Below, in pieces: positions 1-52,624 of a stretch of 61,303 nt of DNA. The number at the start of each line of letters is the position of its first letter. The first letter of the stretch is position 1. A model generated the notes under the pieces. The model made no database searches. It was not told the origin of the DNA and saw only the letters and a list, made by a program, of their open reading frames with translations. A program made the position numbers and the translations under genes. The stretch is from Macrostomum lignano (taxonomy: Eukaryota): positions 1 to 61,303 of the forward strand of contig NIVC01003538.1 of the NCBI GenBank assembly GCA_002269645.1, read 5' to 3'.

Positions 1-3000
1 GCTAGCCAGGAGCGTCTGCCTCATCCAGCAGGGCAACACCCTACCAGTTCACTTCGCGAATGTCACGGACTCCGAGCTGCGGCTGCGGAAGGGAGCTGTC
101 ATCGGCTGGTTTCGACCATCAGATCCGGCTCAAGAGGTTCTGGTAGCCAGCATCGAAGAGCAAGCGTCGGTTTTACGACCCAGCTGCGATCCATGGGACC
201 CAGAGGCGGCACTGAACCAGCACGGCTCCAAGCAGCTCACGGGGCAGACAAAGCGAGTTTCCTAAGATTGGTGAATCGATACGCAGATGTTTTCGCAGAG
301 AGTACAGCGCGCCTCGGGACGACGGACATCGTGCAGCATGAAATTGAGACCACCGGAACAGCCGTAAAACAGCCTCCGCGACGGCTACCGCCACATTGGC
401 GCGGCGAAGTCGACCGACAAATCGACGAGCTTTTGGCAACGAAGATGATTGAACCGACCCAATCGCCGTGGAGTTCGCCAGTGGTCTGTGTCCGTAAGAG
501 AATGGGGAACTGCGACTGTGTGTCGACTACAGAGAGTTGAATCAACGAACTGTCAAGGACGCCATAGCAATCCCGCGTGTCGATGACGCACTTGAAGCGC
601 TCGGAGGTGCGGCTGTATTTTCGACGCTCGACCTTTGCTCCGGCTATTGGCAAGTTAAGGTCAAAAGGGAGGATCAAGAAAAGACTGCTTTTGTCATTCC
701 GCATCGGGGGCAATTCGCGTTCAAGGTGCTGCCCTTCGGATTGACCAATGCGCCGGCGACATTCACAAGGTTGATGAATATGGTACTACACGACCTTCTG
801 TGGAAAATGGCGCTCGTCTACATCGACGATATCATCATTTGGTCCCGAACTGTCAGCGAGCATCTAACGAATCTCGAGGCGGTATTCCAGCGCCTGCGCG
901 CAGCCAACTTGAGGCTAAAGCCATCTAAGTGCAGATTCCTGGCCGATGAGGTCAAATTCCTTGGCCACGTCGTGTCAAAGGACGGAATCGATGTCGACCC
1001 GGAGAAGATCAAGGAAGTCCGTGACTGGAGCATTCCAAGAAATGCAAAAGACCTTCAGTCGTTCCTGGGTCTGGCTGGTTACTACCGAAACTTCATACCA
1101 GAATTCTCGATAGTCGCTGCACCACTTTTTGATCTGACAAAGAAAGACAAGCCGTTCAGTTGGAGAGAGGAACACGATGAGGCCTTCAAAAAGCTGAAAG
1201 AAGAATTGACCGGTTGCCGCGTGATGGCCTACCCGAACTTCGACCCCACGGCTGGTGAGTTCATCTTGGATACCGATGGAAGTACCCGACAGGGTCTCGG
1301 AGCAGTCTTGTCGCAGGTACAAGAAGACGGGTCAGAGCGGGTTATTGCGTACGGGAGTCGGCGTCTGCAAGGGGCCGAATTCAACTATTGCACGACACGA
1401 ATCGAGCTCCTGGCGCTGGTGACATTCGCAGAGAGGTTCCGGTACTATCTACTTGGCCGGAGGTTCCGGGTGCGCACCGACCACGCAAGTCTGCAGTGGC
1501 TCCGAAGTATGAGGCAGCCGGAAGGCCAGTTGGCTCGGTGGATGGAGAGGTTGGCGCCATTCGACTTCGCAGTGGAGCATCGGCCAGGGGCGCGTCATCA
1601 GAATGCGGACGCGCTGTCACGCAAGCCGCCGCGACGACATCCCGAAATGGATAACTGCCCGTCGTGCCGGACTGATGACCTCCCGGGGTCAGGGTAACGA
1701 CGCTGCTCGGGTTGCTCAGCCGAGATGAGCTGGCAGCAGCACAAGCTGTGGACAACGACATCGCTCCAGTTTACCAGTCGATGCACGCCGGCCGAGCAAA
1801 CAGAGCCACCTCGGGGTGCGTCACCAACGACCCGAGCCATCTGGGCACAAAAGCCTCGGCTGGAAATTGTGGACAACACCCTCGTCATCAAGGATCTGGG
1901 ACGTCACCCACCGCGGGCTGTTCTCCCGAAGAAATTGATCCCCGACGCTCTGCAGACGCTGCACTCTGGACCAGGAGGTGGACACTTCGGCGTAGCAAAG
2001 ACTCTGGAGAAAGTCAGGAACCGATTCTGGAGACCCGGCTTGAAGCGAGAGGTCGAGGAGTTTGTGCGAAGGTGTGACGACTGTAACCGGAGCAAGCCCG
2101 GGATGCGGCGGAAGGCCCCATTGGAGCCGATTCCCAGCAGCCATGTGTTTGAAAGAGTGATGGTGGATTTGATTGGACCACTGCCAACCAGCGTCCGAGG
2201 CAACAAATACATACTGACGATGCAGGACGCGTTCAGTAAGTGGCCAGTGGCAGTACCGGTGCCAGATCAGACGGCCAGCACCTGTGCAAGGGCAATGCTC
2301 GAGGAGTGGGTCTGTCACTACGGAGCCCCAGGAACAATCCACTCGGATCAGGGAGCCAATTTCGAGTCGCAATTGATCGGCCAGCTGTGCGAAAGTCTGA
2401 ATATCCGAAAGACGCGTACGACCGCCTATCACCCCTCTGGAAACGGCCAAGTGGAAAGCTTCAATAAGACGCTGACTGCAGTGATCCGGGCGCACCTGGT
2501 GAAGGAGCCGGATCAGAGGCGGTGGGACGAATTCGTTGCCCCGGCGCTCATGGCGTATCGCTCCAGTGTGCACCGCGGCACCGGCTACTCACCCTTCTTC
2601 CTTCTGCATGGTCGCGAGATGTCTCTGCCAGTTGACTTGGGAGTGGCGCGCCCACTGGACATCGAACCGTACTGCGAGGAAGTCCAGAACCTGCGGGAGA
2701 CGCTCGTGGAAGCCCATCGGGTGGTGCGTGAGAGAATAACGTCATATCAACGAGTGCAGAAAGACTGGTACGACCGGAAGGTGAAGGGTCGAGAATTCGT
2801 GGCTGGCGACGAGGTGTTCGTCTACAACCCCGTGTTGAAGGCCGGTGCCAAAGCGAAGCTCCACTCACCCTGGACCGGACCTGCCGTAGTTCTCGAGAAG
2901 CTGTCGGAGACGCGCTATAGGATTCGACAGGAAGGTCGACGGAAGCCGATCAAGGTGGTGCACTTTAACAACCTCCTGCCTCGGTACCGGAAGTACCCGG

Positions 3001-3281
3001 TCGACGGCACCGGTGGCCCTCGGCGTCCTGCACCAAGGAGGTACCACCCAGGTCCTGCTCAAGAGACGGAATCCGTCAGGGAGGACTCGCAGGAATCGGA
3101 CGATGAGGATGAGGAGCGATGGTGGCGACATTCCGGGCGGGTTCGAGAGGAGGGAGAACCAATGGATGTGCAGCAGCCAGGAGTGCAGCCGCAGCCGGAA
3201 GCGCCAGTTGAAGTCATCGAAGGTCGACCCCAGAGGGATCGAAGGGTTCCGCAGCGTTATGGAACGCCCGTTTATTATTAA
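1..3281 (+). CDS. pol: Gypsy pol (partial; RT, RNase H, integrase), copy A, with small indels relative to copy B at ~500, ~1683 and ~1800
   Basis: ORFs 193-540, 537-1697 and 1725-3281 join into RT (YIDD), RNase H (LDTDGS) and integrase (H..H..CDDC zinc finger, DLIGP, SDQG, VESFNKT); near-identical to 7880-11164. Confidence 0.9.
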
Positions 3282-3312: not shown

Positions 3313-3460
3313 CGCGTCATCACCTGCGTCATCAACATTTGGTTCGAAGCATCATCCGCGTCATCACCTGCGTCATCAACATTTGGTTCGAAGCATCATC
3401 CGCGTCATCACCTGCGTCATCAACATTTGGTTCGAAGCATCGTCTGCGTCATCACCCGCG
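3313..3460 (+). repeat. 44-bp tandem repeat (3 units plus a partial) between pol and ORF3, copy A
   Basis: Unit CGCGTCATCACCTGCGTCATCAACATTTGGTTCGAAGCATCATC. Confidence 0.9.
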
Positions 3461-3662
3461 TTATTGAAAACTGGGCTCGTGTTATTGCCTCTGCTTCACA
3501 AACAAAAATATATATTTCCCCTCTTAAGGCCCGTCAGTGGAGGTCCCACCTGCCCAACCCTGCCATCAGGGATGAAGGATCGGCGCCCCAAAGAGGCTCG
3601 AAGGAACCATTGCCCTGCTCTCAAAAGTGAGTCGTGGTTGTTGCAGGCACTGCTTTCCGGGC

Positions 3663-4543
3663 ATGGACCTCTACGCCGAGTTTGGTGTCAGCCCCTTCGC
3701 GACGGAGGAGGAGCTGCGACGTGCGTACCGCCGTGAGAGCCTGCGACGGCACCCCGACAAGTGTGGACCCGGTGGAACGGAGAATTTCCAGAGGCTGCAG
3801 CATGCGAGTGCGGTCCTGCTGTGTCCGTTTCGACGAGCGCTGTACGACCGGTTCGGGCAGGATGCCGTTAGCAACCCGCTCGAGTGCGCCCGGTATTTTG
3901 TCCCGCCGGATGGGATGTGCGTCCCGGAGGAGTTTGTCGTAACGATTGAAGACGAAACAGAAGAGTCAGACGAGGACAGGGAGTCGGAGGAAGCGAGCGT
4001 GGTGGTTGCGGCGGCGAGGAGACTGCTCAGAGCTGCTGTGAAATCACGCAGTCAGAGGAAGAAGAGCTCTTGAATGAATTCGACGGCGAAACTTCGATGT
4101 CAGAAGACGAACCGGAGCTCGTCATCGACCAACGGGAGTCGCCAGCGTGGCTGATGAGGAGCGAGCCGAGTACCGAGGTGGAATACACCTGGAGCGGGGA
4201 GGCAACGCAGCGAAGAGCTCGAATCCGGTCGGAGCTTCGGCACGCTTTGTTGTCGGGGAGTCCAGCTGCGATGTTCCGGCTTTTGACTGAAATGGTGGGA
4301 CTGTGCGGCAGCGAGCGGCTGGATCATCGACGCGAAATCGCCGAGCTTTTGGCTCAGACTGTCAAGTTCATTCTCCGTGACATCAGCGCCAAGTGTCGGG
4401 GTCATGCTCGGCGTGTCTGGCGGCGGCCTGCCTTCAAGCGAAGCACTCGGTTCGTCATGAGTGTTGCGATCCCTCAGTTTGAACTAATCGACGGAGGACG
4501 CGTGTTGGGGTTGTTGCGCCGGGCGGCGGAGGTGGCGGTCTAG
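3663..4543 (+). CDS. Retrotransposon ORF3: J-domain (DnaJ/Hsp40-like) protein, copy A; HPD intact, split by a 1-bp difference at ~3986
   Basis: ATG 3663: MDLYAEFGVSPFATEEELRRAYRRESLRRHPDKCGPGGTENFQRLQHASAVLLCPFRRALYDRFG follows the J-domain consensus (helix I DxY..LGV, helix II ELRRAYR, HPDK loop, helix III, terminal YD..G). Confidence 0.85.
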
Positions 4544-4674
4544 GGGGTTCTGGGGCAGAATGCCAGGGCGGGCAAGAGACCTTCACTCCTTCATTTCATC
4601 CCATCTCTCCTCTGATCGTCGTTGTGATCCCTCTGTTTGGCACTGGGAGCGGCCCGAAGGAAGGGCGGGGAACA

Positions 4675-5150
4675 CTCTCGGCCATGCCCGACGCTCTCGG
4701 TCGTTGCCCGGCATTCTCGGCCGCTGCCCGGCATTCTCGGCCGCTGTCCGGCACTCTCGGCCATGCCCGGCGTTCTCGGTCGCTGCCCGGCATTCTCGGC
4801 CGCTGCCCGGCATTCTCGGCCGCTGTCCGGCACTCTCGGCCATGCCCGGCGTTCTCGGTCGCTGCCCGGCATTCTCGGCCGCTGCCCGGCATTCTCGGCC
4901 GCTGTCCGGCACTCTCGGCCATGCCGGCGTTCTCGGTCGCTGCCCGGCATTCTCGGCCGCTGCCCGGCATTCTCGGCCGCTGTCCGGCATTCTCGGCCAT
5001 GCCGGCGTTTTCGGCCACAGTCCGGCATTCTCGGCCGTGCCCGGTGTTCTCGGCCATGCCCGGCGTTTTCGGCCACAGTCCGGCATTCTCGGCCGTGCCC
5101 GGTGTTCTCGGCCTGTCCGACATCCTCGCCCTGTCCTGCGCTCTCGGCCG
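4675..5150 (+). repeat. GC/CpG-rich ~20-bp minisatellite with a ~79-bp higher-order period, in the element 3' UTR (copy A)
   Basis: Subunits such as CGGCATTCTCGGCCGCTGCC; lacks stop codons, hence the many spurious ORFs. Confidence 0.9.
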
Positions 5151-5244
5151 CTGCCTGACACTCTTGGTCTCTTTCATTCAGTTTCATTTCATTACATTTT
5201 TTTTTCATTTTCATTCAGTCAAAGCGCGTCGTTTTCTTTTTTTT

Positions 5245-5254
5245 AGGGGGAGGG
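5245..5254 (+). other. Polypurine tract (copy A)
   Basis: AGGGGGAGGG directly before the LTR start TGTTGT, preceded by a T-tract. Confidence 0.85.
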
Positions 5255-6218
5255 TGTTGTGACCTGTGTCACAGTGCTCCCTGGTGCAAGTGCACTTTGA
5301 TAGTTGTTGACTTTGGTAGTTGATTATTGTTACCCCCCCCCCCCCCGGCTCAAGCCAGTCTGGAGCTATGAGCCCTTTGGCTGAGCCTCTGCTCTCTTTC
5401 TCTCTCTCTCTCGCCTTGGCTGTTTAGCCCTTTGGCTAGCCGTGCTGATTGGCTGGGCCTCTGCTCTCTCTCCCTCTCCCTGGCCGTGCGCGCTTCCACC
5501 CTCCCCTCGCCGCAGCCAATCAGCTGTCAATCAGCTCCATTGTTTAAGCCCTTTCTCCCCCCCTTGTTTGCGCCCCTGCCCCTTTTTACTCGTTATTTAA
5601 GGCGACGCTCAGACCCCGCCCCTTTTCTCACCGTGCCTGCGCCCATTTGCGCCCACCGCGATAAATAAACGAACGTGACCAGCGATCAGCCGTAAAGACG
5701 GTCTCTTACTGCGAAGACTCAATTTATTGCAATCGATCGGCCTTCCCGTGTATGAGTGCTATAATCGACCCGGCCCGGTAAGCTGTCGAGACAATTGCCT
5801 GTGTTCCTCGGGGTCGCTCTCCTGATCTCTCTCTCTCTCACTCTCTCCTCAGTCTGACTCACCAGGCTGTCGAGTGGCCGACCGCCCGCAGCCCTCTCTC
5901 TCTTCCTTGACTCACCAGGCTGTCGAGTGGCCGCCCGCCCACAGCCCTCTCTCTTTTCCTTGATCACCAGGCTGTCGAGTGGCCGACCGCCCGCAGCCCT
6001 CTCTCTCTTCCTTGACTCACCAGGCTGTCGAGTGGCCGCCCGCCCACAGCCGCCCCTCCCCTCTCTCTCGACTTCTCAACCTTGACCTCCCCCGAAGTGT
6101 CCGTACGCCTCGGGGTCGCCGATCGAGCTCGTAAGCCCTGGGCAGTCTAGTACCCGAACCCCGACACCGCTACCCGTCGCCCAACCCGGCCGTGCCAGCG
6201 AGGAAGGGGGATACAACA
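5255..6218 (+). repeat. Gypsy LTR shared by copies A and B (964 bp)
   Basis: TGTTGT...ACAACA inverted termini; near-identical to 13141-14102; CCAAT boxes, TATTTAA ~5593, AATAAA 5664, four ~53-bp internal repeats at 5856-6052. Confidence 0.95.
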
Positions 6219-6219
6219 T

Positions 6220-6237
6220 TGGCGCCCGAACAGGGAC
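6220..6237 (+). other. Primer binding site complementary to the 3' 18 nt of tRNA-Lys(UUU)
   Basis: TGGCGCCCGAACAGGGAC, 1 nt after the LTR end; same 18-mer as the tRNA-Lys3 PBS of HIV-1. Confidence 0.9.
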
Positions 6238-6261
6238 TGCTCAGTTTGCTTGTGAGCTGTC

Positions 6262-7242
6262 ATGGCGAATGTGGACGAACTGATTCGGCTGCTAGCCGAG
6301 CGTCTGCGAGCGGATGGACCAGCCCAGCCACCGAGACTCCCGAAGCCCGTGAAGTACACGTCAAGCATGAATTTTCGACTCTGGCTGCGCTCTTTCAACG
6401 CTTATTGCGACTCCGCCGAGATTGACGAGGAGCATCGCCGCGAGCACTTGATGAGCATGCTGGATCTCGCTACGGCGTACGCTGCGGTCGATAATCTGAA
6501 CCTGCCGGGACCCGACGATCCTGTGGATCCGCTGGACTACGAGGGATTCACCGCCCGGTTGGAGGCTCGCTTCTCCCGGTACCGGACAGAGCAGGACAGC
6601 AAGGTCGAGCTAAAAACCCGAGATCAGAAGGATGGCGAGTCGTTGGAGGCCTACGCAGATGCTCTCCTTGAACTGGTGCGCTGTGCCTACCCGGCGGCAA
6701 CTGCCGAGCTGCAGGACGACCTCGCGAAGGATCGCTTCATGCAAGGGGTGAGACTCTCCGACCTCCAGCGAGAGAAGCTCTACCTGCAGCAGCCCGAAGG
6801 TCTGGTGGCAGCACAACGCGCGGTGAGGCAGCTCGAGGCGGCGTCCAAGGCGGCGAAGGGACCGAGATCGGCTGGAGCAACTGGCAGCGGCCACCGAGGA
6901 GTCTTCGTGGTGAGCGGCGCGGCGGAATCTGTGCCTCGGGAGGATGGAGCCTACTCCCAAGAAAAGGACAAAGAGCTCGAGGAGTTGAAGAAACTGGTGA
7001 GGCAGCTTCAAGGCAAAGTGGTTCAGCTCGAGTCGCTGAGAGCGGAACCGCATAGCAGCGCCGCAGCTCGACCGACCGACTCCGACGAAGGCGACCATCA
7101 GAAGCCTCGACGAACGGGAGGAATTCGCTGCTTCTTCTGCAACAAGCCAGGGCACATCGCGACTAACTGCCCAACCCGTCAGCAACAGGGAAACGGCAAG
7201 GGGAACTTCCGCAGGGGCGAGGGAGTTCCGCCGAGACAGTAG
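6262..7242 (+). CDS. gag: Gypsy Gag (326 aa) with a CCHC zinc knuckle
   Basis: Intact ORF right after the PBS; CFFCNKPGHIATNC knuckle; capsid-like region (QKDGESLEAYADALLELVRCAYP). Confidence 0.92.
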   Translation: MANVDELIRLLAERLRADGPAQPPRLPKPVKYTSSMNFRLWLRSFNAYCDSAEIDEEHRREHLMSMLDLATAYAAVDNLNLPGPDDPVDPLDYEGFTARLEARFSRYRTEQDSKVELKTRDQKDGESLEAYADALLELVRCAYPAATAELQDDLAKDRFMQGVRLSDLQREKLYLQQPEGLVAAQRAVRQLEAASKAAKGPRSAGATGSGHRGVFVVSGAAESVPREDGAYSQEKDKELEELKKLVRQLQGKVVQLESLRAEPHSSAAARPTDSDEGDHQKPRRTGGIRCFFCNKPGHIATNCPTRQQQGNGKGNFRRGEGVPPRQ

Positions 7243-7249
7243 AGGCCCC
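7188..7249 (+). promoter_or_regulatory. -1 programmed ribosomal frameshift signal (slippery heptamer plus putative H-type pseudoknot)
   Basis: G GGA AAC at 7188-7194 in Gag phase; pol frame is -1 and open from 7167; stem 1 7202-7210/7221-7229; stem 2 GGGGC 7214-7218/GCCCC 7245-7249. Confidence 0.75.
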
Positions 7250-10200
7250 AACCCGAGACGAAGATGCAGCCCCGGAGCGACGTGCAGCAGGATGTCCGGC
7301 GGACTGCTCAAGAGATAGAGATCAACCTGCAACAGCTTTTAATCCCGTGTCAATCTACGTGTCGGTAAAAATTGGCGAGATTGAGTTGCCGTGTCTGTTG
7401 GATTCGGGCTCGGTCATGTCGCTGGTGAACGAGAGGACCTGGCGGCAGTTGAGCAAGTCGGTTCGAGTTGAACTCAGCCCTTCGGAAACCCACCTGATCT
7501 CAGCGAACGGAACTCCCATGAATGTGTTAGGATGCGCGTCGCTTCCCCTACAGTTCGGATCAGAAACTTTACAGACGCCAATTGCGGTGGTCCAAGGGGT
7601 CGGCTACGAACTGTTGCTAGGCACCGACTTCTTACGCCGCCACCGGTGCCAAATCGATTTCGCCGGAGGAGTTTTCCGCGTGAACGGTTCACGTGTGCCA
7701 ATCCGAGAGACCAAGCACAAACCAGTCGTCTGCCGGTTGTACCTGAACGAAAACTTGATCATTCCGGCCAATCACGAACGGACCGTCTCAGCCAGGATTC
7801 GGAGAACAGCGACACAGAATTCCGGAGTGCTCGGCGTCGCCGAGCCAGACGAAAAACTGAAGAGCGATGAGAGACCAATGCTAGCCAGGAGCGTCTGCCT
7901 CATCCAGCAGGGCAACACCCTACCAGTTCACTTCGCGAATGTCACGGACTCCGAGCTGCGGCTGCGGAAGGGAGCTGTCATCGGCTGGTTTCGACCATCA
8001 GATCCGGCTCAAGAGGTTCTGGTAGCCAGCATCGAAGAGCAAGCGTCGGTTTTACGACCCAGCTGCGATCCATGGGACCCAGAGGCGGCACTGAACCAGC
8101 ACGGCTCCAAGCAGCTCACGGGGGCAGACAAAGCGAGTTTCCTAAGATTGGTGAATCGATACGCAGATGTTTTCGCAGAGAGTACAGCGCGCCTCGGGAC
8201 GACGGACATCGTGCAGCATGAAATTGAGACCACCGGAACAGCCGTAAAACAGCCTCCGCGACGGCTACCGCCACATTGGCGCGGCGAAGTCGACCGACAA
8301 ATCGACGAGCTTTTGGCAACGAAGATGATTGAACCGACCCAATCGCCGTGGAGTTCGCCAGTGGTCTGTGTCCGTAAGAAGAATGGGGAACTGCGACTGT
8401 GTGTCGACTACAGAGAGTTGAATCAACGAACTGTCAAGGACGCCATAGCAATCCCGCGTGTCGATGACGCACTTGAAGCGCTCGGAGGTGCGGCTGTATT
8501 TTCGACGCTCGACCTTGCTCCGGCTATTGGCAAGTTAAGGTCAAAAGGGAGGATCAAGAAAAGACTGCTTTTGTCATTCCGCATCGGGGGCAATTCGCGT
8601 TCAAGGTGCTGCCCTTCGGATTGACCAATGCGCCGGCGACATTCACAAGGTTGATGAATATGGTACTACACGACCTTCTGTGGAAAATGGCGCTCGTCTA
8701 CATCGACGATATCATCATTTGGTCCCGAACTGTCAGCGAGCATCTAACGAATCTCGAGGCGGTATTCCAGCGCCTGCGCGCAGCCAACTTGAGGCTAAAG
8801 CCATCTAAGTGCAGATTCCTGGCCGATGAGGTCAAATTCCTTGGCCACGTCGTGTCAAAGGACGGAATCGATGTCGACCCGGAGAAGATCAAGGAAGTCC
8901 GTGACTGGAGCATTCCAAGAAATGCAAAAGACCTTCAGTCGTTCCTGGGTCTGGCTGGTTACTACCGAAACTTCATACCAGAATTCTCGATAGTCGCTGC
9001 ACCACTTTTTGATCTGACAAAGAAAGACAAGCCGTTCAGTTGGAGAGAGGAACACGATGAGGCCTTCAAAAAGCTGAAAGAAGAATTGACCGGTTGCCGC
9101 GTGATGGCCTACCCGAACTTCGACCCCACGGCTGGTGAGTTCATCTTGGATACCGATGGAAGTACCCGACAGGGTCTCGGAGCAGTCTTGTCGCAGGTAC
9201 AAGAAGACGGGTCAGAGCGGGTTATTGCGTACGGGAGTCGGCGTCTGCAAGGGGCCGAATTCAACTATTGCACGACACGAATCGAGCTCCTGGCGCTGGT
9301 GACATTCGCAGAGAGGTTCCGGTACTATCTACTTGGCCGGAGGTTCCGGGTGCGCACCGACCACGCAAGTCTGCAGTGGCTCCGAAGTATGAGGCAGCCG
9401 GAAGGCCAGTTGGCTCGGTGGATGGAGAGGTTGGCGCCATTCGACTTCGCAGTGGAGCATCGGCCAGGGGCGCGTCATCAGAATGCGGACGCGCTGTCAC
9501 GCAAGCCGCCGCGACGACATCCCGAAATGGATAACTGCCCGTCGTGCCGGACTGATGACCTCCCCGGGGTCAGGGTAACGACGCTGCTCGGGTTGCTCAG
9601 CCGAGATGAGCTGGCAGCAGCACAAGCTGTGGACAACGACATCGCTCCAGTTTACCAGTCGATGCACGCCGGCCGAGCAAACGAAGAGCCACCTCGGGGT
9701 GCGTCACCAACGACCCGAGCCATCTGGGCACAAAAGCCTCGGCTGGAAATTGTGGACAACACCCTCGTCATCAAGGATCTGGGACGTCACCCACCGCGGG
9801 CTGTTCTCCCGAAGAAATTGATCCCCGACGCTCTGCAGACGCTGCACTCTGGACCAGGAGGTGGACACTTCGGCGTAGCAAAGACTCTGGAGAAAGTCAG
9901 GAACCGATTCTGGAGACCCGGCTTGAAGCGAGAGGTCGAGGAGTTTGTGCGAAGGTGTGACGACTGTAACCGGAGCAAGCCCGGGATGCGGCGGAAGGCC
10001 CCATTGGAGCCGATTCCCAGCAGCCATGTGTTTGAAAGAGTGATGGTGGATTTGATTGGACCACTGCCAACCAGCGTCCGAGGCAACAAATACATACTGA
10101 CGATGCAGGACGCGTTCAGTAAGTGGCCAGTGGCAGTACCGGTGCCAGATCAGACGGCCAGCACCTGTGCAAGGGCAATGCTCGAGGAGTGGGTCTGTCA

Positions 10201-11164
10201 CTACGGAGCCCCAGGAACAATCCACTCGGATCAGGGAGCCAATTTCGAGTCGCAATTGATCGGCCAGCTGTGCGAAAGTCTGAATATCCGAAAGACGCGT
10301 ACGACCGCCTATCACCCCTCTGGAAACGGCCAAGTGGAAAGCTTCAATAAGACGCTGACTGCAGTGATCCGGGCGCACCTGGTGAAGGAGCCGGATCAGA
10401 GGCGGTGGGACGAATTCGTTGCCCCGGCGCTCATGGCGTATCGCTCCAGTGTGCACCGCGGCACCGGCTACTCACCCTTCTTCCTTCTGCATGGTCGCGA
10501 GATGTCTCTGCCAGTTGACTTGGGAGTGGCGCGCCCACTGGACATCGAACCGTACTGCGAGGAAGTCCAGAACCTGCGGGAGACGCTCGTGGAAGCCCAT
10601 CGGGTGGTGCGTGAGAGAATAACGTCATATCAACGAGTGCAGAAAGACTGGTACGACCGGAAGGTGAAGGGTCGAGAATTCGTGGCTGGCGACGAGGTGT
10701 TCGTCTACAACCCCGTGTTGAAGGCCGGTGCCAAAGCGAAGCTCCACTCACCCTGGACCGGACCTGCCGTAGTTCTCGAGAAGCTGTCGGAGACGCGCTA
10801 TAGGATTCGACAGGAAGGTCGACGGAAGCCGATCAAGGTGGTGCACTTTAACAACCTCCTGCCTCGGTACCGGAAGTACCCGGTCGACGGCACCGGTGGC
10901 CCTCGGCGTCCTGCACCAAGGAGGTACCACCCAGGTCCTGCTCAAGAGACGGAATCCGTCAGGGAGGACTCGCAGGAATCGGACGATGAGGATGAGGAGC
11001 GATGGTGGCGACATTCCGGGCGGGTTCGAGAGGAGGGAGAACCAATGGATGTGCAGCAGCCAGGAGTGCAGCCGCAGCCGGAAGCGCCAGTTGAAGTCAT
11101 CGAAGGTCGACCCCAGAGGGATCGAAGGGTTCCGCAGCGTTATGGAACGCCCGTTTATTATTAA
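7188..11164 (+). CDS. pol: Gypsy pol (protease, RT, RNase H, integrase), copy B, with one 1-bp deletion relative to copy A at ~8515
   Basis: Protease LLDSGS, RT YIDD, RNase H, HHCC/DDE integrase and WTGP motif; ORFs 7347-8624 and 8606-11164 join if the T present in copy A (GACCTTTGC) is restored. Confidence 0.93.
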
Positions 11165-11191
11165 GAGCGGGCGTGAGTGCGTGCGCAATGT

Positions 11192-11339
11192 CGCGTCATC
11201 ACCTGCGTCATCAACATTTGGTTCGAAGCATCATCCGCGTCATCACCTGCGTCATCAACATTTGGTTCGAAGCATCATCCGCGTCATCACCTGCGTCATC
11301 AACATTTGGTTCGAAGCATCGTCTGCGTCATCACCCGCG
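11192..11339 (+). repeat. 44-bp tandem repeat, copy B
   Basis: Same unit as 3313-3460. Confidence 0.9.
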
Positions 11340-11541
11340 TTATTGAAAACTGGGCTCGTGTTATTGCCTCTGCTTCACAAACAAAAATATATATTTCCCC
11401 TCTTAAGGCCCGTCAGTGGAGGTCCCACCTGCCCAACCCTGCCATCAGGGATGAAGGATCGGCGCCCCAAAGAGGCTCGAAGGAACCATTGCCCTGCTCT
11501 CAAAAGTGAGTCGTGGTTGTTGCAGGCACTGCTTTCCGGGC

Positions 11542-12423
11542 ATGGACCTCTACGCCGAGTTTGGTGTCAGCCCCTTCGCGACGGAGGAGGAGCTGCGACG
11601 TGCGTACCGCCGTGAGAGCCTGCGACGGCACCCCTACAAGTGTGGACCCGGTGGAACGGAGAATTTCCAGAGGCTGCAGCATGCGAGTGCGGTCCTGCTG
11701 TGTCCGTTTCGACGAGCGCTGTACGACCGGTTCGGGCAGGATGCCGTTAGCAACCCGCTCGAGTGCGCCCGGTATTTTGTCCCGCCGGATGGGATGTGCG
11801 TCCCGGAGGAGTTTGTCGTAACGATTGAAGACGAAACAGAAGAGTCAGACGAGGACAGGGAGTCGGGAGGAAGCGAGCGTGGTGGTTGCGGCGGCGAGGA
11901 GACTGCTCAGAGCTGCTGTGAAATCACGCAGTCAGAGGAAGAAGAGCTCTTGAATGAATTCGACGGCGAAACTTCGATGTCAGAAGACGAACCGGAGCTC
12001 GTCATCGACCAACGGGAGTCGCCAGCGTGGCTGATGAGGAGCGAGCCGAGTACCGAGGTGGAATACACCTGGAGCGGGGAGGCAACGCAGCGAAGAGCTC
12101 GAATCCGGTCGGAGCTTCGGCACGCTTTGTTGTCGGGGAGTCCAGCTGCGATGTTCCGGCTTTTGACTGAAATGGTGGGACTGTGCGGCAGCGAGCGGCT
12201 GGATCATCGACGCGAAATCGCCGAGCTTTTGGCTCAGACTGTCAAGTTCATTCTCCGTGACATCAGCGCCAAGTGTCGGGGTCATGCTCGGCGTGTCTGG
12301 CGGCGGCCTGCCTTCAAGCGAAGCACTCGGTTCGTCATGAGTGTTGCGATCCCTCAGTTTGAACTAATCGACGGAGGACGCGTGTTGGGGTTGTTGCGCC
12401 GGGCGGCGGAGGTGGCGGTCTAG
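11542..12423 (+). CDS. Retrotransposon ORF3: J-domain protein, copy B (293 aa, uninterrupted; HPD reads HPY)
   Basis: ATG 11542; J-domain, acidic tract, then a helical/basic C-terminal region; CAC CCC TAC versus CAC CCC GAC in copy A. Confidence 0.85.
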   Translation: MDLYAEFGVSPFATEEELRRAYRRESLRRHPYKCGPGGTENFQRLQHASAVLLCPFRRALYDRFGQDAVSNPLECARYFVPPDGMCVPEEFVVTIEDETEESDEDRESGGSERGGCGGEETAQSCCEITQSEEEELLNEFDGETSMSEDEPELVIDQRESPAWLMRSEPSTEVEYTWSGEATQRRARIRSELRHALLSGSPAAMFRLLTEMVGLCGSERLDHRREIAELLAQTVKFILRDISAKCRGHARRVWRRPAFKRSTRFVMSVAIPQFELIDGGRVLGLLRRAAEVAV

Positions 12424-12556
12424 GGGGTTCTGGGGCAGAATGCCAGGGCGGGCAAGAGACCTTCACTCCTTCATTTCATCCCATCTCTCCTCTGATCGTC
12501 GTTGTGATCCCTCTGTTTGGCACTGGGAGCGGCCCCGAAGGAAGGGCGGGGAACAC

Positions 12557-13040
12557 TCTCGGCCATGCCCGGCGCTCTCGGTCGTTGCCCGGCATTCTCG
12601 GCCGCTGCCCGGCATTCTCGGCCGCTGTCCGGCACTCTCGGCCATGCCCGGCGTTCTCGGTCGCTGCCCGGCATTCTCGGCCGCTGCCCGGCATTCTCGG
12701 CCGCTGTCCGGCACTCTCGGCCATGCCCGGCGTTCTCGGTCGCTGCCCGGCATTCTCGGCCGCTGCCCGGCATTCTCGGCCGCTGTCCGGCACTCTCGGC
12801 CATGCCCGGCGTTCTCGGTCGCTGCCCGGCATTCTCGGCCGCTGCCCGGCATTCTCGGCCGCTGTCCGGCATTCTCGGCCATGCCCGGCGTTTTCGGCCA
12901 CAGTCCGGCATTCTCGGCCGTGCCCGGTGTTCTCGGCCATGCCCGGCGTTTTCGGCCACAGTCCGGCATTCTCGGCCGTGCCCGGTGTTCTCGGCCTGTC
13001 CGACATCCTCGGCCCCTGTCCTGCGCTCTCGGCCGCTGCC
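12557..13040 (+). repeat. GC-rich ~20-bp minisatellite with a 79-bp higher-order repeat, copy B
   Basis: The same 20-mer recurs at 12601 and 12680. Confidence 0.9.
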
Positions 13041-13140: not shown

Positions 13141-14102
13141 TGTTGTGACCTGTGTCACAGTGCTCCCTTGGTGCAAGTGCACTTTGATAGTTGTTGACTT
13201 TGGTAGTTGATTATTGTTACCCCCCCCCGGCTCAAGCCAGTCTGGAGCTATGAGCCCTTTGGCTGAGCCTCTGCTCTCTTTCTCTCTCTCTCTCGCCTTG
13301 GCTGTTTAGCCCTTTGGCTAGCCGTGCTGATTGGCTGGGCCTCTGCTCTCTCTCCCTCTCCCTGGCCGTGCGCGCTTCCACCCTCCCCTCGCCGCAGCCA
13401 ATCAGCTGTCAATCAGCTCCATTGTTTAAGCCCTTTCTCCCCCCCTTGTTTGCGCCCCTGCCCCTTTTTACTCGTTATTTAAGGCGACGCTCAGACCCCG
13501 CCCCTTTTCTCACCGTGCCTGCGCCCATTTGCGCCCACCGCGATAAATAAACGAACGTGACCAGCGATCAGCCGTAAAGACGGTCTCTTACTGCGAAGAC
13601 TCAATTTATTGCAATCGATCGGCCTTCCCGTGTATGAGTGCTATAATCGACCCGGCCCGGTAAGCTGTCGAGACAATTGCCTGTGTTCCTCGGGGTCGCT
13701 CTCCTGATCTCTCTCTCTCTCACTCTCTCCTCAGTCTGACTCACCAGGCTGTCGAGTGGCCGACCGCCCGCAGCCCTCTCTCTCTTCCTTGACTCACCAG
13801 GCTGTCGAGTGGCCGCCCGCCCACAGCCCTCTCTCTTTTCCTTGATTCACCAGGCTGTCGAGTGGCCGACCGCCCGCAGCCCTCTCTCTCTTCCTTGACT
13901 CACCAGGCTGTCGAGTGGCCGCCCGCCCACAGCCGCCCCTCCCCTCTCTCTCGACTTCTCAACCTTGACCTCCCCCCGAAGTGTCCGTACGCCTCGGGGT
14001 CGCCGATCGAGCTCGTAAGCCCTGGGCAGTCTAGTACCCGAACCCCGACACCGCTACCCGTCGCCCAACCCGGCCGTGCCAGCGAGGAAGGGGGATACAA
14101 CA
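13141..14102 (+). repeat. Gypsy 3' LTR (962 bp); PPT at 13130-13140
   Basis: TGTTGT...ACAACA; near-identical to 5255-6218; no PBS follows. Confidence 0.95.
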
Positions 14103-14758
14103 CCTGTGTAAAAATTAGTAATAATAAATAATAATAAAATGTCTATGGCCTTAAATTAGTTAAATTATCACTTGTGGAGCCAGGACTGGTTAAATGCTTT
14201 GGTTTAGTATACTTTAAGTGTCTTAGTCTGATTAAAAATAACAGTAAAATAAAACCCTCTCTCTAGCCGCCTTTATTATCGATTTTTTGCCTCGCCATCC
14301 GACCCCTAGCTATAACCCCTTCTAGGGACAGGATAATGTACATTGCAGACCCTATCGCAGTTTAAGGGTTGGTTGGGCCTGTCCTCTCTTCAATTTTAGT
14401 ATCACACCCTGCCAAGGCGCCAACCTCCTCCGGAGATAAGCTAGCCTGTACATCGATAACCCCTCCTCCCTCTTTTACAACCTCCCAAAGGCTCTCTTAA
14501 GTCCTGTTGGAACGAAATTAATCCCAAAGATTTTTTATAACTTGTCGCGATTTTATGAAATGAAGCCCAGTACCACCATGCTTGAGCAGAAGATGTTTTT
14601 CGAACAAGCACTACTTGTATGTACTTATCTGTCATCTATGTAATTCTTAAAGTAAACAGACGTATCTTACTTCTAAAAGTAATAAAGTACATGTAAGATT
14701 TTACGATGCGATTTTCTGTGTGTAATGTGAAATGACAAAGCCAAGGGATATAGTCTCA

Positions 14759-28237: not shown

Positions 28238-28599
28238 GTGAGGATTCTTAGAATTAAGTGAGGTTTGGGCTCGGGGAATTTGCTATGAAATCGGCCTTTA
28301 AACATTCTTAGAATCATATTAATTCATTTGTAGAATCGCTCTTAGAACATTTTTAGAAGTGCTCGTGAATGTTTCTTAGAAGCATGTTTAACTTATTCTT
28401 AGAATCGCTTTTTAAATGATTCTTAGAATCGCCATTAACTCATTCACAGAACCGAAATATCATTCTTAGAATCATACTTAAATAATTCTTAGAATCATAC
28501 TTAAATCATTCTTAGAATCATAAATAAATCATTCTTAGAATCATACTTAAATCTTTCTTAGAATCATACTTACATCATTCTTAGAATCATAAATAAATC

Positions 28600-31500
28600 T
28601 TTCTTAGAATCGCCCTCAACTCATTCCTATAATCGCCCTTAACTCATTCTTAGAATCGCCCTCAACTCATTCTTAGAATCGCCCTCAACTCATTCTTAGA
28701 ATCGCCCTCAACTCATTCTTAGAATCGCCCTCAACTCATTCTTAGAATCGCCCTCAAGTCATTCTTAGAATCGCCCTCAACTCATTCTTAGAATCGCCCT
28801 TAACCCATTCTTAGAAAGAATCGCCCTCAACTCATTCTTAGAATCGCCCTCAACTCATTCTTAGAATCGCCCTCAACTCATTCTTAGAATCGCCCTCAAC
28901 TCATTCTTAGAATCGCCCTCAACTCATTCTTAGAATCGCCCTCAACTCATTCTTAGAATCGCCCTGAACTCATTCTTAGAATCGCCCTCAACTCATTCTT
29001 AGAATCGCCCTCAACTCATTCTTAGAATCGCCCTCAACTCATTCTTAGAATCGCCCTCAACTCATTCTTAGAATCGCCCTCAACTCATTCTTAGAATCGC
29101 CCTCAACTCATTCTTAGAATCGCCCTCAACTCATTCTTAGAATCGCCCTCAACTCATTCTTAGAATCGCCCTCAACTCATTCTTAGAATCGCCCTCAACT
29201 CATTCTTAGAATCGCCCTCAACTCATTCTTAGAATCGCCCTCAACTCATTCTTAGAATCGCCCTCAACTCATTCTTAGAATCGCCCTCAACTCATTCTTA
29301 GAATCGCCCTCAACTCATTCTTAGAATCGCCCTTAACCATTCTTAGAATCGCCCTCAACTCATTCTTAGAATCGCCCTCAACTCATTCTTAGAATCGCCC
29401 TCAACTCATTCTTAGAATCGCCCTCAACTCATTCTTAGAATCGCCCTCAACTCATTCTTAGAATCGCCCTCAACTCATTCTTAGAATCGCCCTGAACTCA
29501 TTCTTAGAATCGCCCTCAACTCATTCTTAGAATCGCCCTCAACTCATTCTTAGAATCGCCCTCAACTCATTCTTAGAATCGCCCTCAACTCATTCTTAGA
29601 ATCGCCCTCAACTCATTCTTAGAATCGCCCTCAACTCATTCTTAGAATCGCCCTCAACTCATTCTTAGAATCGCCCTCAACTCATTCTTAGAATCGCCCT
29701 CAACTCATTCTTAGAATCGCCCTCAACTCATTCTTAGAATCGCCCTCAACTCATTCTTAGAATCGCCCTCAACTCATTCTTAGAATCGCCCTCAACTCAT
29801 TCTTAGAATCGCCCTCACTCATTCTTAGAATCGCCCTTAACTCATTCTTAGAATCGCCCTCAACTCATTCTTAGAATCGCCCTCAACTCATTCTTAGAAT
29901 CGCCCTCAACTCATTCTTAGAATCGCCCTCAACTCATTCTTAGAATCGCCCTCAACTCATTCTTAGAATCGCCCTCAACTCATTCTTAGAATCGCCCTCA
30001 ACTCATTCTTAGAATCGCCCTCAACTCATTCTTAGAATCGCCCTCAACTCATTCTTAGAATCGCCCTTAACTCATTCTTAGAATCGCCCTTAACTCATTC
30101 TTAGAATCGCCCTCAACTCATTCTTAGAATCGCCCTCAACTCATTCTTAGAATCGCCCTCAACTCATTCTTAGAATCGCCCTCAACTCATTCTTAGAATC
30201 GCCCTCAACTCATTCTTAGAATCGCCCTCAACTCATTCTTAGAATCGCCCTCAACTCATTCTTAGAATCGCCCTTAACTCATTCTTAGAATCGCCCTCAA
30301 CTCATTCTTAGAATCGCCCTTAACTCATTCTTAGAATCGCCCTTAACTCATTCTTAGAATCGCCCTTAACTCATTCTTAGAATCGCCCTCAACTCATTCT
30401 TAGAATCGCCCTCAACTCATTCTTAGAATCGCCCTCAACTCATTCTTAGAATCGCCCTCAACTCATTCTTAGAATCGCCCTCAACTCATTCTTAGAATCG
30501 CCCTCAACTCATTCTTAGAATCGCCCTCAACTCATTCTTAGAATCGCCCTCAACTCATTCTTAGAATCGCCCTCAACTCATTCTTAGAATCGCCCTCAAC
30601 TCATTCTTAGAATCGCCCTCAACTCATTCTTAGAATCGCCCTCAACTCATTCTTAGAATCGCCCTCAACTCATTCTTAGAATCGCCCTCAACTCATTCTT
30701 AGAATCGCCCTCAACTCATTCTTAGAATCGCCCTCAACTCATTCTTAGAATCGCCCTTAACTCATTCTTAGAATCGCCCTCAACTCATTCTTAGAATCGC
30801 CCTCAACTCATTCTTAGAATCGCCCTCAACTCATTCTTAGAATCGCCCTCAACTCATTCTTAGAATCGCCCTCAACTCATTCTTAGAATCGCCCTCAACT
30901 CATTCTTAGAATCGCCCTCAACTCATTCTTAGAATCGCCCTCAACTCATTCTTAGAATCGCCCTCAACTCATTCTTAGAATCGCCCTCAACTCATTCTTA
31001 GAATCGCCCTCAACTCATTCTTAGAATCGCCCTCAACTCATTCTTAGAATCGCCCTCAACTCATTCTTAGAATCGCCCTCAACTCATTCTTAGAATCGCC
31101 CTCAACTCATTCTTAGAATCGCCCTCAACTCATTCTTAGAATCGCCCTCAACTCATTCTTAGAATCGCCCTCAACTCATTCTTAGAATCGCCCTCAACTC
31201 ATTCTTAGAATCGCCCTCAACTCATTCTTAGAATCGCCCTCAACTCATTCTTAGAATCGCCCTCAACTCATTCTTAGAATCGCCCTCAACTCATTCTTAG
31301 AATCGCCCTCAACTCATTCTTAGAATCGCCCTCAACTCATTCTTAGAATCGCCCTCAACTCATTCTTAGAATCGCCCTCAACTCATTCTTAGAATCGCCC
31401 TCAACTCATTCTTAGAATCGCCCTCAACTCATTCTTAGAATCGCCCTCAACTCATTCTTAGAATCGCCCTCAACTCATTCTTAGAATCGCCCTCAACTCA

Positions 31501-34500
31501 TTCTTAGAATCGCCCTCAACTCATTCTTAGAATCGCCCTCAACTCATTCTTAGAATCGCCCTCAACTCATTCTTAGAATCGCCCTCAACTCATTCTTAGA
31601 ATCGCCCTCAACTCATTCTTAGAATCGCCCTCAACTCATTCTTAGAATCGCCCTCAACTCATTCTTAGAATCGCCCTCAACTCATTCTTAGAATCGCCCT
31701 CAACTCATTCTTAGAATCGCCCTCAACTCATTCTTAGAATCGCCCTCAACTCATTCTTAGAATCGCCCTCAACTCATTCTTAGAATCGCCCTCAACTCAT
31801 TCTTAGAATCGCCCTCAACTCATTCTTAGAATCGCCCTCAACTCATTCTTAGAATCGCCCTCAACTCATTCTTAGAATCGCCCTCAACTCATTCTTAGAA
31901 TCGCCCTCAACTCATTCTTAGAATCGCCCTCAACTCATTCTTAGAATCGCCCTCAACTCATTCTTAGAATCGCCCTCAACTCATTCTTAGAATCGCCCTC
32001 AACTCATTCTTAGAATCGCCCTCAACTCATTCTTAGAATCGCCCTCAACTCATTCTTAGAATCGCCCTCAACTCATTCTTAGAATCGCCCTCAACTCATT
32101 CTTAGAATCGCCCTCAACTCATTCTTAGAATCGCCCTCAACTCATTCTTAGAATCGCCCTCAACTCATTCTTAGAATCGCCCTCAACTCATTCTTAGAAT
32201 CGCCCTCAACTCATTCTTAGAATCGCCCTCAACTCATTCTTAGAATCGCCCTCAACTCATTCTTAGAATCGCCCTCAACTCATTCTTAGAATCGCCCTCA
32301 ACTCATTCTTAGAATCGCCCTCAACTCATTCTTAGAATCGCCCTCAACTCATTCTTAGAATCGCCCTCAACTCATTCTTAGAATCGCCCTCAACTCATTC
32401 TTAGAATCGCCCTCAACTCATTCTTAGAATCGCCCTCAACTCATTCTTAGAATCGCCCTCAACTCATTCTTAGAATCGCCCTCAACTCATTCTTAGAATC
32501 GCCCTCAACTCATTCTTAGAATCGCCCTCAACTCATTCTTAGAATCGCCCTCAACTCATTCTTAGAATCGCCCTCAACTCATTCTTAGAATCGCCCTCAA
32601 CTCATTCTTAGAATCGCCCTCAACTCATTCTTAGAATCGCCCTCAACTCATTCTTAGAATCGCCCTCAACTCATTCTTAGAATCGCCCTCAACTCATTCT
32701 TAGAATCGCCCTCAACTCATTCTTAGAATCGCCCTCAACTCATTCTTAGAATCGCCCTCAACTCATTCTTAGAATCGCCCTCAACTCATTCTTAGAATCG
32801 CCCTCAACTCATTCTTAGAATCGCCCTCAACTCATTCTTAGAATCGCCCTCAACTCATTCTTAGAATCGCCCTCAACTCATTCTTAGAATCGCCCTCAAC
32901 TCATTCTTAGAATCGCCCTCAACTCATTCTTAGAATCGCCCTCAACTCATTCTTAGAATCGCCCTCAACTCATTCTTAGAATCGCCCTCAACTCATTCTT
33001 AGAATCGCCCTCAACTCATTCTTAGAATCGCCCTCAACTCATTCTTAGAATCGCCCTCAACTCATTCTTAGAATCGCCCTCAACTCATTCTTAGAATCGC
33101 CCTCAACTCATTCTTAGAATCGCCCTCAACTCATTCTTAGAATCGCCCTCAACTCATTCTTAGAATCGCCCTCAACTCATTCTTAGAATCGCCCTCAACT
33201 CATTCTTAGAATCGCCCTCAACTCATTCTTAGAATCGCCCTCAACTCATTCTTAGAATCGCCCTCAACTCATTCTTAGAATCGCCCTCAACTCATTCTTA
33301 GAATCGCCCTCAACTCATTCTTAGAATCGCCCTCAACTCATTCTTAGAATCGCCCTCAACTCATTCTTAGAATCGCCCTCAACTCATTCTTAGAATCGCC
33401 CTCAACTCATTCTTAGAATCGCCCTCAACTCATTCTTAGAATCGCCCTCAACTCATTCTTAGAATCGCCCTCAACTCATTCTTAGAATCGCCCTCAACTC
33501 ATTCTTAGAATCGCCCTCAACTCATTCTTAGAATCGCCCTCAACTCATTCTTAGAATCGCCCTCAACTCATTCTTAGAATCGCCCTCAACTCATTCTTAG
33601 AATCGCCCTCAACTCATTCTTAGAATCGCCCTCAACTCATTCTTAGAATCGCCCTCAACTCATTCTTAGAATCGCCCTCAACTCATTCTTAGAATCGCCC
33701 TCAACTCATTCTTAGAATCGCCCTCAACTCATTCTTAGAATCGCCCTCAACTCATTCTTAGAATCGCCCTCAACTCATTCTTAGAATCGCCCTCAACTCA
33801 TTCTTAGAATCGCCCTCAACTCATTCTTAGAATCGCCCTCAACTCATTCTTAGAATCGCCCTCAACTCATTCTTAGAATCGCCCTCAACTCATTCTTAGA
33901 ATCGCCCTCAACTCATTCTTAGAATCGCCCTCAACTCATTCTTAGAATCGCCCTCAACTCATTCTTAGAATCGCCCTCAACTCATTCTTAGAATCGCCCT
34001 CAACTCATTCTTAGAATCGCCCTCAACTCATTCTTAGAATCGCCCTCAACTCATTCTTAGAATCGCCCTCAACTCATTCTTAGAATCGCCCTCAACTCAT
34101 TCTTAGAATCGCCCTCAACTCATTCTTAGAATCGCCCTCAACTCATTCTTAGAATCGCCCTCAACTCATTCTTAGAATCGCCCTCAACTCATTCTTAGAA
34201 TCGCCCTCAACTCATTCTTAGAATCGCCCTCAACTCATTCTTAGAATCGCCCTCAACTCATTCTTAGAATCGCCCTCAACTCATTCTTAGAATCGCCCTC
34301 AACTCATTCTTAGAATCGCCCTCAACTCATTCTTAGAATCGCCCTCAACTCATTCTTAGAATCGCCCTCAACTCATTCTTAGAATCGCCCTCAACTCATT
34401 CTTAGAATCGCCCTCAACTCATTCTTAGAATCGCCCTCAACTCATTCTTAGAATCGCCCTCAACTCATTCTTAGAATCGCCCTCAACTCATTCTTAGAAT

Positions 34501-48576: not shown

Positions 48577-49423
48577 CATTCAGCGGCACAGTGGACTCTC
48601 TGAGCAAGCAGAAGATCAGCAACTTCGTGTCTGCAAATCTTGGCACTCTGCCAAAAGCTTGGTCAATCTTTGACGAGACCTGGGACCTGCTGGCTGTGGC
48701 TTGATCCTAGTCTTGGCCCTGCTGCTCATCGGCGGAGCAAAGTTCTCAATGTCGGTTAACGCTGGACTGAGCACTGCTCAGCTGCTGTGCCTGATCACCG
48801 CCACAGTTGCCTGCTTCATCTACGGCTCCCTTGACAACTGGACTGCCGGCAGCGGCTTCTTCCCCTTCGGCGGCGTCGGCGTGGTGGAAGGCGCCAGCAT
48901 CGCCATGTTCGCTTTCTCGGGCTTCGAGAGCGTCGGCTCGGCAGCGGAGGAGTGTAGCAACCCGAAGCGGGACCTGCCCAGGGCTCTGCTAGCGAGCCTG
49001 TCGGCTGTCAGTGTGGTGTACGTCGTGGCCTGCTTGGGCCTGTCATTCGTTCAGCCCTACTGGAAGCTCAACGTTGCTGCACCATTTGTGGTGGCTTTCT
49101 CCGGACATCCGTGGTCAAATGGTGGAGTCATCCGCCAGCCCTGCTGGCCACGCGTTTCGCTGCACGGGCTGGTGGCTTTGCCGCGGCTCGTATCGTGGCA
49201 TCACCGCCGCGGTTGGCACTTGCTGGCACGTTGCCTGCGAGGAAAGGTTAGATCGGAGAGGAGTGTTGGAGTGAGTGTACGGTATAGACTGGAAGGTTGC
49301 TTCTTTCTCCGGACATCCGGGAGCCAAATGGGCGGAGGTCACCGACAACCAAAGTTAATGTACGCCCTGGCATCTGACGGGGTCATCTTTGGTGCCTTTG
49401 CTAACGTTAATGAGAGAGTGCAG
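48577..49423 (+). CDS. Cationic amino acid transporter, exon 3 (1-bp frameshift at ~48700; garbled segment ~49110-49350)
   Basis: AFSG.VDSL, GFFPFGG.GVVEGA...MFAFSGFE....AEEC.NPKRDLP, LMYALASDG; acceptor at 48575-48576, donor at 49424. Confidence 0.7.
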
Positions 49424-49479
49424 GTGCGCGAGATGGAGAGGCTGGAGTGACGGGCAGATAGTGGTTGAAGTCTGAAGCT

Positions 49480-49930
49480 ATAAGGTAGAGATTCGGTGGA
49501 CAAACAGCCTAATAAGGTAGAGATTTGGTGGACAAACAGCCTAATAAGGTAGAGATTCGGTGGACAAACAGCCTAATAAGGTAGAGATTTGGTGGACAAA
49601 CAGCCTAATAAGGAAGAGATTCGGTGGACAAACAGCCTAATAAGGTAGAGATTTGGTGGACAAACAGCCTAATAAGGTAGAGATTTGGTGGACAAACAGC
49701 CTAATAAGGAAGAGATTCGGTGGACAAACAGACTGATAAGGTAGACATTCGGTGAACAAACAGACTGATAAAGTAGAGATTCGGTGGACAAACAGACTGA
49801 TAAGGAAGAGATTCGGTGGACAAACAGACTGATAAGGTAGAGATTCGGTGGACAAAACAGACTAATAAGGTAGAGATTCGGTGGACAAACAGACTGATAA
49901 GGTAGAAATTCGGTGGACAAACAGACTGCC
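49480..49930. repeat. 32-bp minisatellite in transporter intron 3, ~14 copies
   Basis: TAAGGTAGAGATTCGGTGGACAAACAGCCTAA units. Confidence 0.9.
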
Positions 49931-49999
49931 AGGCAGAGGTCAGTGGAATGACTCAAAGAAGCCAGCAGTGCAGTGAATTGCCAACTCTCCCTCACGCAG

Positions 50000-50543: not shown

Positions 50544-50587
50544 GTTTGCGACTGGTTTTGCTTCTAGGGGCATTTGAAATTTTGCTC

Positions 50588-52337: not shown

Positions 52338-52624
52338 AATAAATATCCAATACAGTATCGTACCGATATATCTATGGTTGTTAGTTCATATCGCAAATAC
52401 GCTTATACTTTAAGTGCCCCCCCCCAAACTGCTCAATTTTTCATCTTGTGTATTTCTTTTTGTTCAAACTGATAAAATACACTTAATTAAAAGAAGCAAG
52501 TTTCAACAGGTTATGGGCCCAGCACGCTTCCACTGCGAGTACTTCGATGTACTAGATCATTCTGGTAATCTGGTTCTTCGTGCCATTTGGAAACTTGATC
52601 GCTCGGTCGATCAGTTACGTTGCT

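Follow-up and report, generated by a model that had tools for sequence, protein, structure and literature searches.

ORF3, a reading frame in the env position of a Ty3/Gypsy retrotransposon of Macrostomum lignano, is an accessory gene conserved within one Gypsy clade, and its product joins a J-domain (DnaJ/Hsp40 type) through an acidic linker to a basic domain of five helices. ORF3 was noticed on contig NIVC01003538.1 (assembly GCA_002269645.1, forward strand; the whole stretch of 61,303 nucleotides is hereafter called the window), which opens within a tandem Gypsy array consisting of internal region A, a long terminal repeat (LTR) at 5255–6218, internal region B and an LTR at 13141–14102. The two units are 3 substitutions and 19 small indels apart, and both pol copies are interrupted by small indels. 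ORF3 is sense and intronless, and lies between the pol stop codon and the polypurine tract (PPT)/3΄ LTR in both units, with a distance of 378 nt from the pol stop to the ORF3 start. The initial annotation of this DNA had placed a sense open reading frame (ORF) between integrase and the PPT in both copies. This position was correct for both, but copy A is not a single ORF at 3663–4543, since, compared with copy B, it shows a 1-nt gap near 3985 that leads to a stop at 4073 after 136 aa and leaves the rest in another frame. Copy B (293 aa) is uninterrupted and carries the motif HPY, not HPD. Both copies are atypical.

Residues 2–62 of ORF3 matched the Pfam DnaJ profile PF00226 (E 2.7e-11 for copy B and E 1.1e-13 for copy A), and both matches exceeded the curated cut-off. 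In the predicted model, a confident J-domain with a helical extension is followed by a disordered linker of acidic character and then by the five-helix domain; the J fold lay 1.2–1.7 Å from solved J-domains. ORF3 is thus a J-domain protein by both profile and fold, with the family F7 described below falling under the profile cut-off. A motif scan of 25 loci found HPD at 21 (18 distinct places, among them copy A, as first annotated) and HPY at one, with the motif absent or uncovered at three; HPY is private to window copy B, and the HPD allele was seen in contigs of 4/4 sequencing runs. ORF3 is not a class A or B DnaJ, as PF01556 matched the host locus L079 and no ORF3. Like the class C J-domain proteins (DNAJC), it has a J-domain without G/F, zinc-finger or DnaJ C-terminal domains, but it differs from them in being borne by an element and in ending with a bundle that has no named relative.

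The acidic tract previously noted after the J-domain corresponds to the disordered linker of the model (residues ~100–175). The C-terminal domain proved to be helical and basic as described, although it spans about 115 aa (179–292) rather than ~130; modelled alone it gave five helices with a pLDDT of 92, and its pI was 9.6–12.0 in 11/11 sequences. It belonged to no sequence family in Pfam, PHROGs or PDB, gave no Foldseek match at E 0.001 in PDB or BFVD and no usable match in Atlas, and resembled only generic bundles in the full ORF3 model (Z up to 8.3). As a protein family the five-helix domain is new; null searches of this kind do not amount to a new fold.

Seven divergent Gypsy families (F1–F7) in the M. 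lignano genome contain gag, then protease, reverse transcriptase (RT), RNase H and integrase, and then the J ORF, all within LTRs, and the RTs of the J-bearing families are 55–63% identical to that of the window. The J search of the genome (G000) gave 152 matches, host DnaJs among them, from 134 scored of 213 candidates; five further families were recovered via weaker J matches and the seventh via an RT search (best 150 of 3716 candidates), and forty extra loci were examined, 34 of them picked by RT. Within F1, the family of the window copies, 12 of 16 loci had a 293-aa ORF3 with ATG and HPD, one lacked the ATG, one had an in-frame deletion spanning the motif and two were frameshifted. F1 LTR pairs are 97–99.9% alike, and 9 of the 11 F1 loci having both ends showed a 4-bp duplication (L037 lacked it, and L034 is a tandem copy whose left flank is identical to the right flank of the window array). 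F1 is a young and dispersed family. The HPD motif, present in 18 F1 places and in F2–F6, is kept across F1–F6 at about 30–48% identity and is invariant in 10/10 aligned rows.

Relatives without J were also found among the extra loci, namely F1b (RT 88% identical), N1, N2 (L115–L118, an F4 derivative that retains only a TatD tail), N3 and N4. On the question, raised in the initial annotation, of whether J and pol always co-occur inside LTRs, they do so in F1–F7 but not in F1b, N1 and N2, which have pol and no J. In a tree built on RT, RNase H and integrase, in which each family is represented by one of 14 rows, F1–F7 with F1b, N1 and N2 lay on one side of a branch with support 99/98, and N3/N4 and a distant element lay on the opposite side; a shorter pol tree left the same grouping without resolution. 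The simplest reading would be a single gain of ORF3 and three losses. N3 is the nearest outgroup family and sister to the clade in this tree, which was built without GyDB reference rows, and its LTR matches one printed for Mlig-id38, a Gmr1/Osvaldo family. An additional F5-like J ORF following a pol-like tail (L149:2586–3100, minus strand of G000:C255) probably represents an eighth family. Primer-binding sites after the 5΄ LTR vary across the clade, with at least four types (L031, L060, L065, L067, L074, L084, L105), a variety that points to repeated primer switching. Three loci are rearranged copies (L089, L085 and L098); in L089 (gene model P0006) the reading frame of RNase H continues into the J-domain, and L085 has an internal tandem duplication.

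Beyond this genome, three proteins combined J with the helical domain (P0008, P0010, P0013) and one contained the helical domain (P0025), among 1.84 billion representatives. P0010 and P0013 are at most 46–49% identical to anything in G000 across long stretches, and are therefore likely to come from other organisms. Metagenome and viral scans for external homologues returned nothing or 48 generic DnaJ loci; two homologue searches scored 8000 candidates, and one homologue search returned a single generic DnaJ only.

ORF3 is under purifying selection. Its dN/dS was 0.08–0.34 in nine within-family or near-relative comparisons (Fisher p < 2e-4 for each), and 0.10–0.13 in the J region for three pairs with dS > 1; between-family values were saturated and excluded, and the two RT controls were at 0.03 and 0.07, one of them being saturated. 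In a quick tree of the J-domain and its extension (104 columns), 13 element or external rows and L149 clustered with SH-aLRT 96, separate from 25 host J-domains, and the tree pointed to no host parent among these 25. A one-off capture of a host mRNA is ruled out by the seven families and by selection. The possibility that ORF3 is a host gene beside the element was also rejected; the J matches without pol nearby (L079/L080, L081–L083 and L125–L128) are host genes. Among them, L127 (G000:C575 and four similar places) is a multi-copy ORF of ~1,400 aa that has a J-domain at its N terminus. The initial annotation had viewed ORF3 as LTR-bounded transposon cargo and had named profile, dN/dS, phylogenetic and structural checks, together with three outcomes that would speak against it. 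None of these three outcomes occurred: the PF00226 match is significant, and ORF3 is conserved in the env position of seven families rather than decaying neutrally. Its J-domains stand apart from those of the host.

In addition to the common core of J-domain, acidic linker and basic bundle, some families carry exchanged add-ons, either a reader of heterochromatin or a nuclease fold that is dead. The F5 ORF3 holds a chromodomain (PF00385, E 1.4e-12) whose best solved matches are Swi6/HP1. This does not make the clade chromoviral, as the window pol has no chromodomain and that of F5 sits inside ORF3. F4 and F7 append a degenerate TatD-like fold, which scores 28.6 and 23.3 bits, respectively, where the cut-off is 27 (L105:6620–8293, L109, L129, L130). 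Compared with 2gzx, the F7 fold keeps the Glu and has two His and the Asp replaced (3/4 positions, in a weak alignment of E 0.09), residues that we take to be metal-binding; it does not qualify as an active TatD nuclease. A hydrophobic-acidic stretch like a SUMO-interacting motif (SIM) occurred in 8/12 ORF3 proteins. ORF3 is not an env gene: it consists of J, an acidic linker and a soluble basic bundle, and matched no env family.

The window element itself is of Ty3/Gypsy type, with gag, pol in the order protease, RT, RNase H and integrase, TG...CA LTRs, a primer-binding site, a PPT and a target-site duplication. The features of the array are as follows.

1–3281, plus strand: pol of tandem copy A, truncated by the contig start; RT, RNase H and integrase, with small indels breaking the frame
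3313–3461, plus strand: 44-bp tandem repeat in the pol–ORF3 interval, copy A
3641–3646, plus strand: predicted 3΄ splice acceptor of copy A, 16 nt upstream of the ORF3 ATG
3663–4073, plus strand: N-terminal part of ORF3 copy A (136 aa) with the HPD J-domain; frame lost after the 1-nt gap
3950–4543, plus strand: C-terminal half of ORF3 copy A (helical domain), in another frame
4673–5155, plus strand: 20/79-bp tandem repeats in the ORF3–PPT interval, copy A
5255–6218, plus strand: middle LTR common to both units, 964 bp, TG...CA, with a purine tract 5΄ of it
5699–5731, plus strand: stretch of the host spliced-leader exon in the LTR (33/35 nt), just 3΄ of AATAAA at 5664
5778–5783, plus strand: candidate splice donor in the LTR
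6220–6237, plus strand: primer-binding site, presumably of tRNA-Lys type
6262–7242, plus strand: gag with a CCHC knuckle
7167–11164, plus strand: pol copy B (protease, RT, RNase H, integrase) in two frames, split near 8515
11192–11340, plus strand: 44-bp tandem repeat, copy B
11520–11525, plus strand: predicted 3΄ splice acceptor, copy B
11542–12423, plus strand: ORF3 copy B, 293 aa, open frame, HPY; J-domain 2–62, extension to ~98, acidic linker ~100–175, five-helix domain 179–292
12554–13040, plus strand: 20/79-bp tandem repeats, copy B
13141–14102, plus strand: 3΄ LTR, with a second spliced-leader copy at 13581–13613
14103–14106, plus strand: 4-nt right flank; the tandem copy in L034 has the same 4 nt as its left flank

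Because of this identity with the L034 flank, positions 14103–14106 are likely a target-site duplication from a single tandem insertion. Elsewhere, the window contains a Ty1/Copia element (52556–56586) whose gag-pol is spread over several frames, a 14-kb satellite (28390–42822; 23-bp unit, 627 copies, 99% matches) with other minisatellites close by, and fragments of host genes for an amino-acid permease (48674–50767), a PAN/Laminin-G protein (57578–58657) and an ion-transport protein (59692–60978).

Just past its polyadenylation signal AATAAA, the F1 LTR carries 33 of the 35 published nucleotides of the exon for the host spliced leader; in the window the region concerned lies at 5689–5731 and 13571–13613. 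This stretch was present in 15/16 F1 loci, with all 35 nucleotides in L043, and in 0/44 other loci above chance level; contig depth over it was 28,000–98,000, compared with 10–40 elsewhere. The stretch may have been left behind by template switching onto a trans-spliced mRNA, or it may be a mimic with a function; no description of a spliced leader inside an LTR was found in the literature searched.

Signals for splicing were found in front of ORF3. A [T/C]TNCAG acceptor, which the available part of PMC8629364 reports as the acceptor motif, lay within 22 nt of the ORF3 start in 9/12 loci, compared with 6.5% of background windows, and in the other three an AG stood immediately or 1 nt upstream of the ATG. 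A GT(A/G)AG donor was present in the LTR or leader of every family. ORF3 of F4 has no ATG; TG directly follows its acceptor and an A precedes the LTR donor in 7/8 F4 loci, so that cis-splicing would create a start codon. These arrangements suggest an env-like spliced mRNA that would run from the LTR donor to the acceptor before ORF3. In public database annotation, the F5 ORF3 is a stand-alone protein of 328 aa. Trans-splicing of the spliced leader onto the ORF3 acceptor is disfavoured because the leader AUG is out of frame in F1, F4, F6 and F7. Heat-shock control of F1 was considered and rejected, as no canonical heat-shock element occurred in the window or in F1 LTRs. The available part of PMC12801592 lists a DnaJ-only transcript with a score of 65.2 that is 2.3-fold up in heat (supplement 2, row 695); the F3 ORF3, a possible counterpart, scores 65.3 on a newer Pfam.

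We tentatively propose that ORF3 may act in the nucleus as an adaptor against silencing, bringing host Hsp70 to the silencing complexes that sit on the element. ORF3 would be translated from the env-like spliced mRNA; its basic bundle would bind element nucleic acid or chromatin, its acidic SIM-like linker (or the F5 chromodomain) would contact SUMOylated or heterochromatin proteins, and HPD would stimulate Hsp70, which would loosen the bound silencing complex. Lineages without ORF3 would be served in trans or by another route. The initial annotation had offered Gag assembly, RT activation and the dismantling of host restriction complexes as roles of an Hsp70 adaptor; the last of these is more in keeping than the first two with the chromodomain, the TatD fold, the SIM-like motifs and the basic C-terminal domain. 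According to the part of PMC8616336 available, plant J-proteins act with Hsp70 on the chromatin of transposable elements (TEs), and TE-encoded anti-silencers exist.

However, several observations weigh against this proposal. With regard to the spliced mRNA, contigs from four runs apiece cover F1 and F5 elements but cannot tell RNA from DNA, and none of the joints listed for them links the LTR to ORF3. The chromodomain occurs in F5 only and keeps two of three aromatics at what we take to be the cage positions. The SIM pattern was defined after viewing the sequences, matches 5–33% of shuffles and is missing in F5, F6, F7 and P0013. ORF3 is under weaker constraint than RT. F7 lacks HPD and reaches 18 bits with PF00226, below the cut-off, yet its ORF3 has a dN/dS of 0.34 and the family has 15 full-length matches at ≥97%. 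F1b, N1 and N2 have lost J and nevertheless have near-identical LTRs (99.7% alike in F1b); together with F7, these three lineages argue against a strict need for J. In addition, the plant J-protein SILENZIO represses and does not activate (PMC8616336, available part).

In a broader version, which we consider somewhat doubtful, the clade would encode a targeted Hsp70 'disassemblase', a J scaffold fitted with interchangeable readers (chromodomain, SIM, dead nuclease) to clear silencing complexes from the element; it would be the first such anti-silencer of an animal retrotransposon and would have spread beyond this species, and the spliced leader of the F1 LTR would be mRNA camouflage.

It is unlikely, but worth weighing, that ORF3 is instead a chaperone of the particle or ribonucleoprotein, in which the bundle would hold element RNA or Gag/Pol and J would call Hsp70 for assembly, uncoating or RT activation. 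The conservation of HPD across six families would fit this role, as would a basic bundle able to bind RNA, and hepadnavirus RT needs Hsp40/Hsp70. However, the close relative F1b transposed recently without J, and a chromodomain and SIM-like motifs are ill-suited to a purely cytoplasmic role. A block of the piRNA defence after transcription is less probable still; ORF3 would shield element RNA or jam chaperone-dependent PIWI loading, and the dead TatD fold, together with the J of F7 that lacks HPD, would serve as binders or decoys. The TatD fold of F4 and F7, with its replacements at presumed active-site positions in F7, is consistent with such a role, but it is confined to one sub-clade. Inactive nuclease folds do serve piRNA biogenesis (PMC5408684, available part). 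We regard it as improbable that ORF3 steers integration by tethering the pre-integration complex to chromatin, like the integrase chromodomains of chromoviruses: the HP1-like chromodomain of F5, and an acidic linker that could bind histones, would suit this function, but ORF3 is separate from integrase and F1 insertion flanks showed no common target motif other than the 4-bp duplications. Finally, the three J losses and one HPD-less family might mean that J is a passenger of an old capture, with the helical domain alone mattering or the benefit of ORF3 small and replaceable, but the dN/dS of the J region and the invariant HPD make this very improbable.

Polyomavirus large T joins an N-terminal J-domain to a targeting part and makes Hsc70 dismantle a host complex; ORF3, as proposed here, would parallel this combination, but large T belongs to a DNA virus, and its target and C-terminal domains are unrelated. 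As functional models, VANC21 of VANDAL21 is a TE-encoded anti-silencer from a DNA transposon, and SILENZIO, with MBD5/6 and Hsp70, is a J-protein on TE chromatin that acts as a host repressor; neither implies sequence relation (both from the available part of PMC8616336). The Gmr1/Osvaldo cluster of M. lignano shares with the J clade Gag, the pol domain order, LTRs and 4-bp duplications; the available parts of that study (PMC12801592), which mines RT, RNase H and integrase, and its five supplements describe no third ORF and no J-domain ORF3, and mention DnaJ only in transcript annotation rows. LTR elements of bdelloid rotifers have family-specific ORF3s in the env position (DEDDy exonuclease, GDSL esterase) that, like those of the J clade, are modular, gained and lost, and include a 3΄–5΄ nuclease fold, and their expression is spliced. 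In contrast to the purifying selection found here, the available part of that report shows no clear departure from neutrality within genomes, and it mentions no J-domain (PMC5408684). Orchid Gypsy elements in which an ORF encodes an AlkB demethylase (PMC9289625) have likewise fixed a host-like domain, and planarian Burro elements (PMC6431247) are Gypsy elements with host-like domains; the available parts of both papers mention no DnaJ, J-domain, Hsp70 or TatD. Non-env ORF3s in Ty3/Gypsy elements are thus already known from the available parts of these three reports, and the J-domain ORF3 is the new part. As the initial annotation had supposed, no retrotransposon with a J-domain ORF3 was found in the literature searched, a search that did not reach subscription journals, Repbase or the 2020 paper classifying the LTR elements of this species, and the DARTS paper does not mention DnaJ.

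Accessory ORFs of LTR elements are known in general, but that literature yielded no conserved Hsp70 co-chaperone whose chromatin and nuclease-fold modules can be swapped. Natural contrasts are at hand in HPD versus HPY, a family without HPD and sister lineages without ORF3. Because the host is tractable (RNAi, transgenesis, pluripotent stem cells), the fight of a retrotransposon against silencing, or its use of chaperones, would be directly testable in M. lignano.

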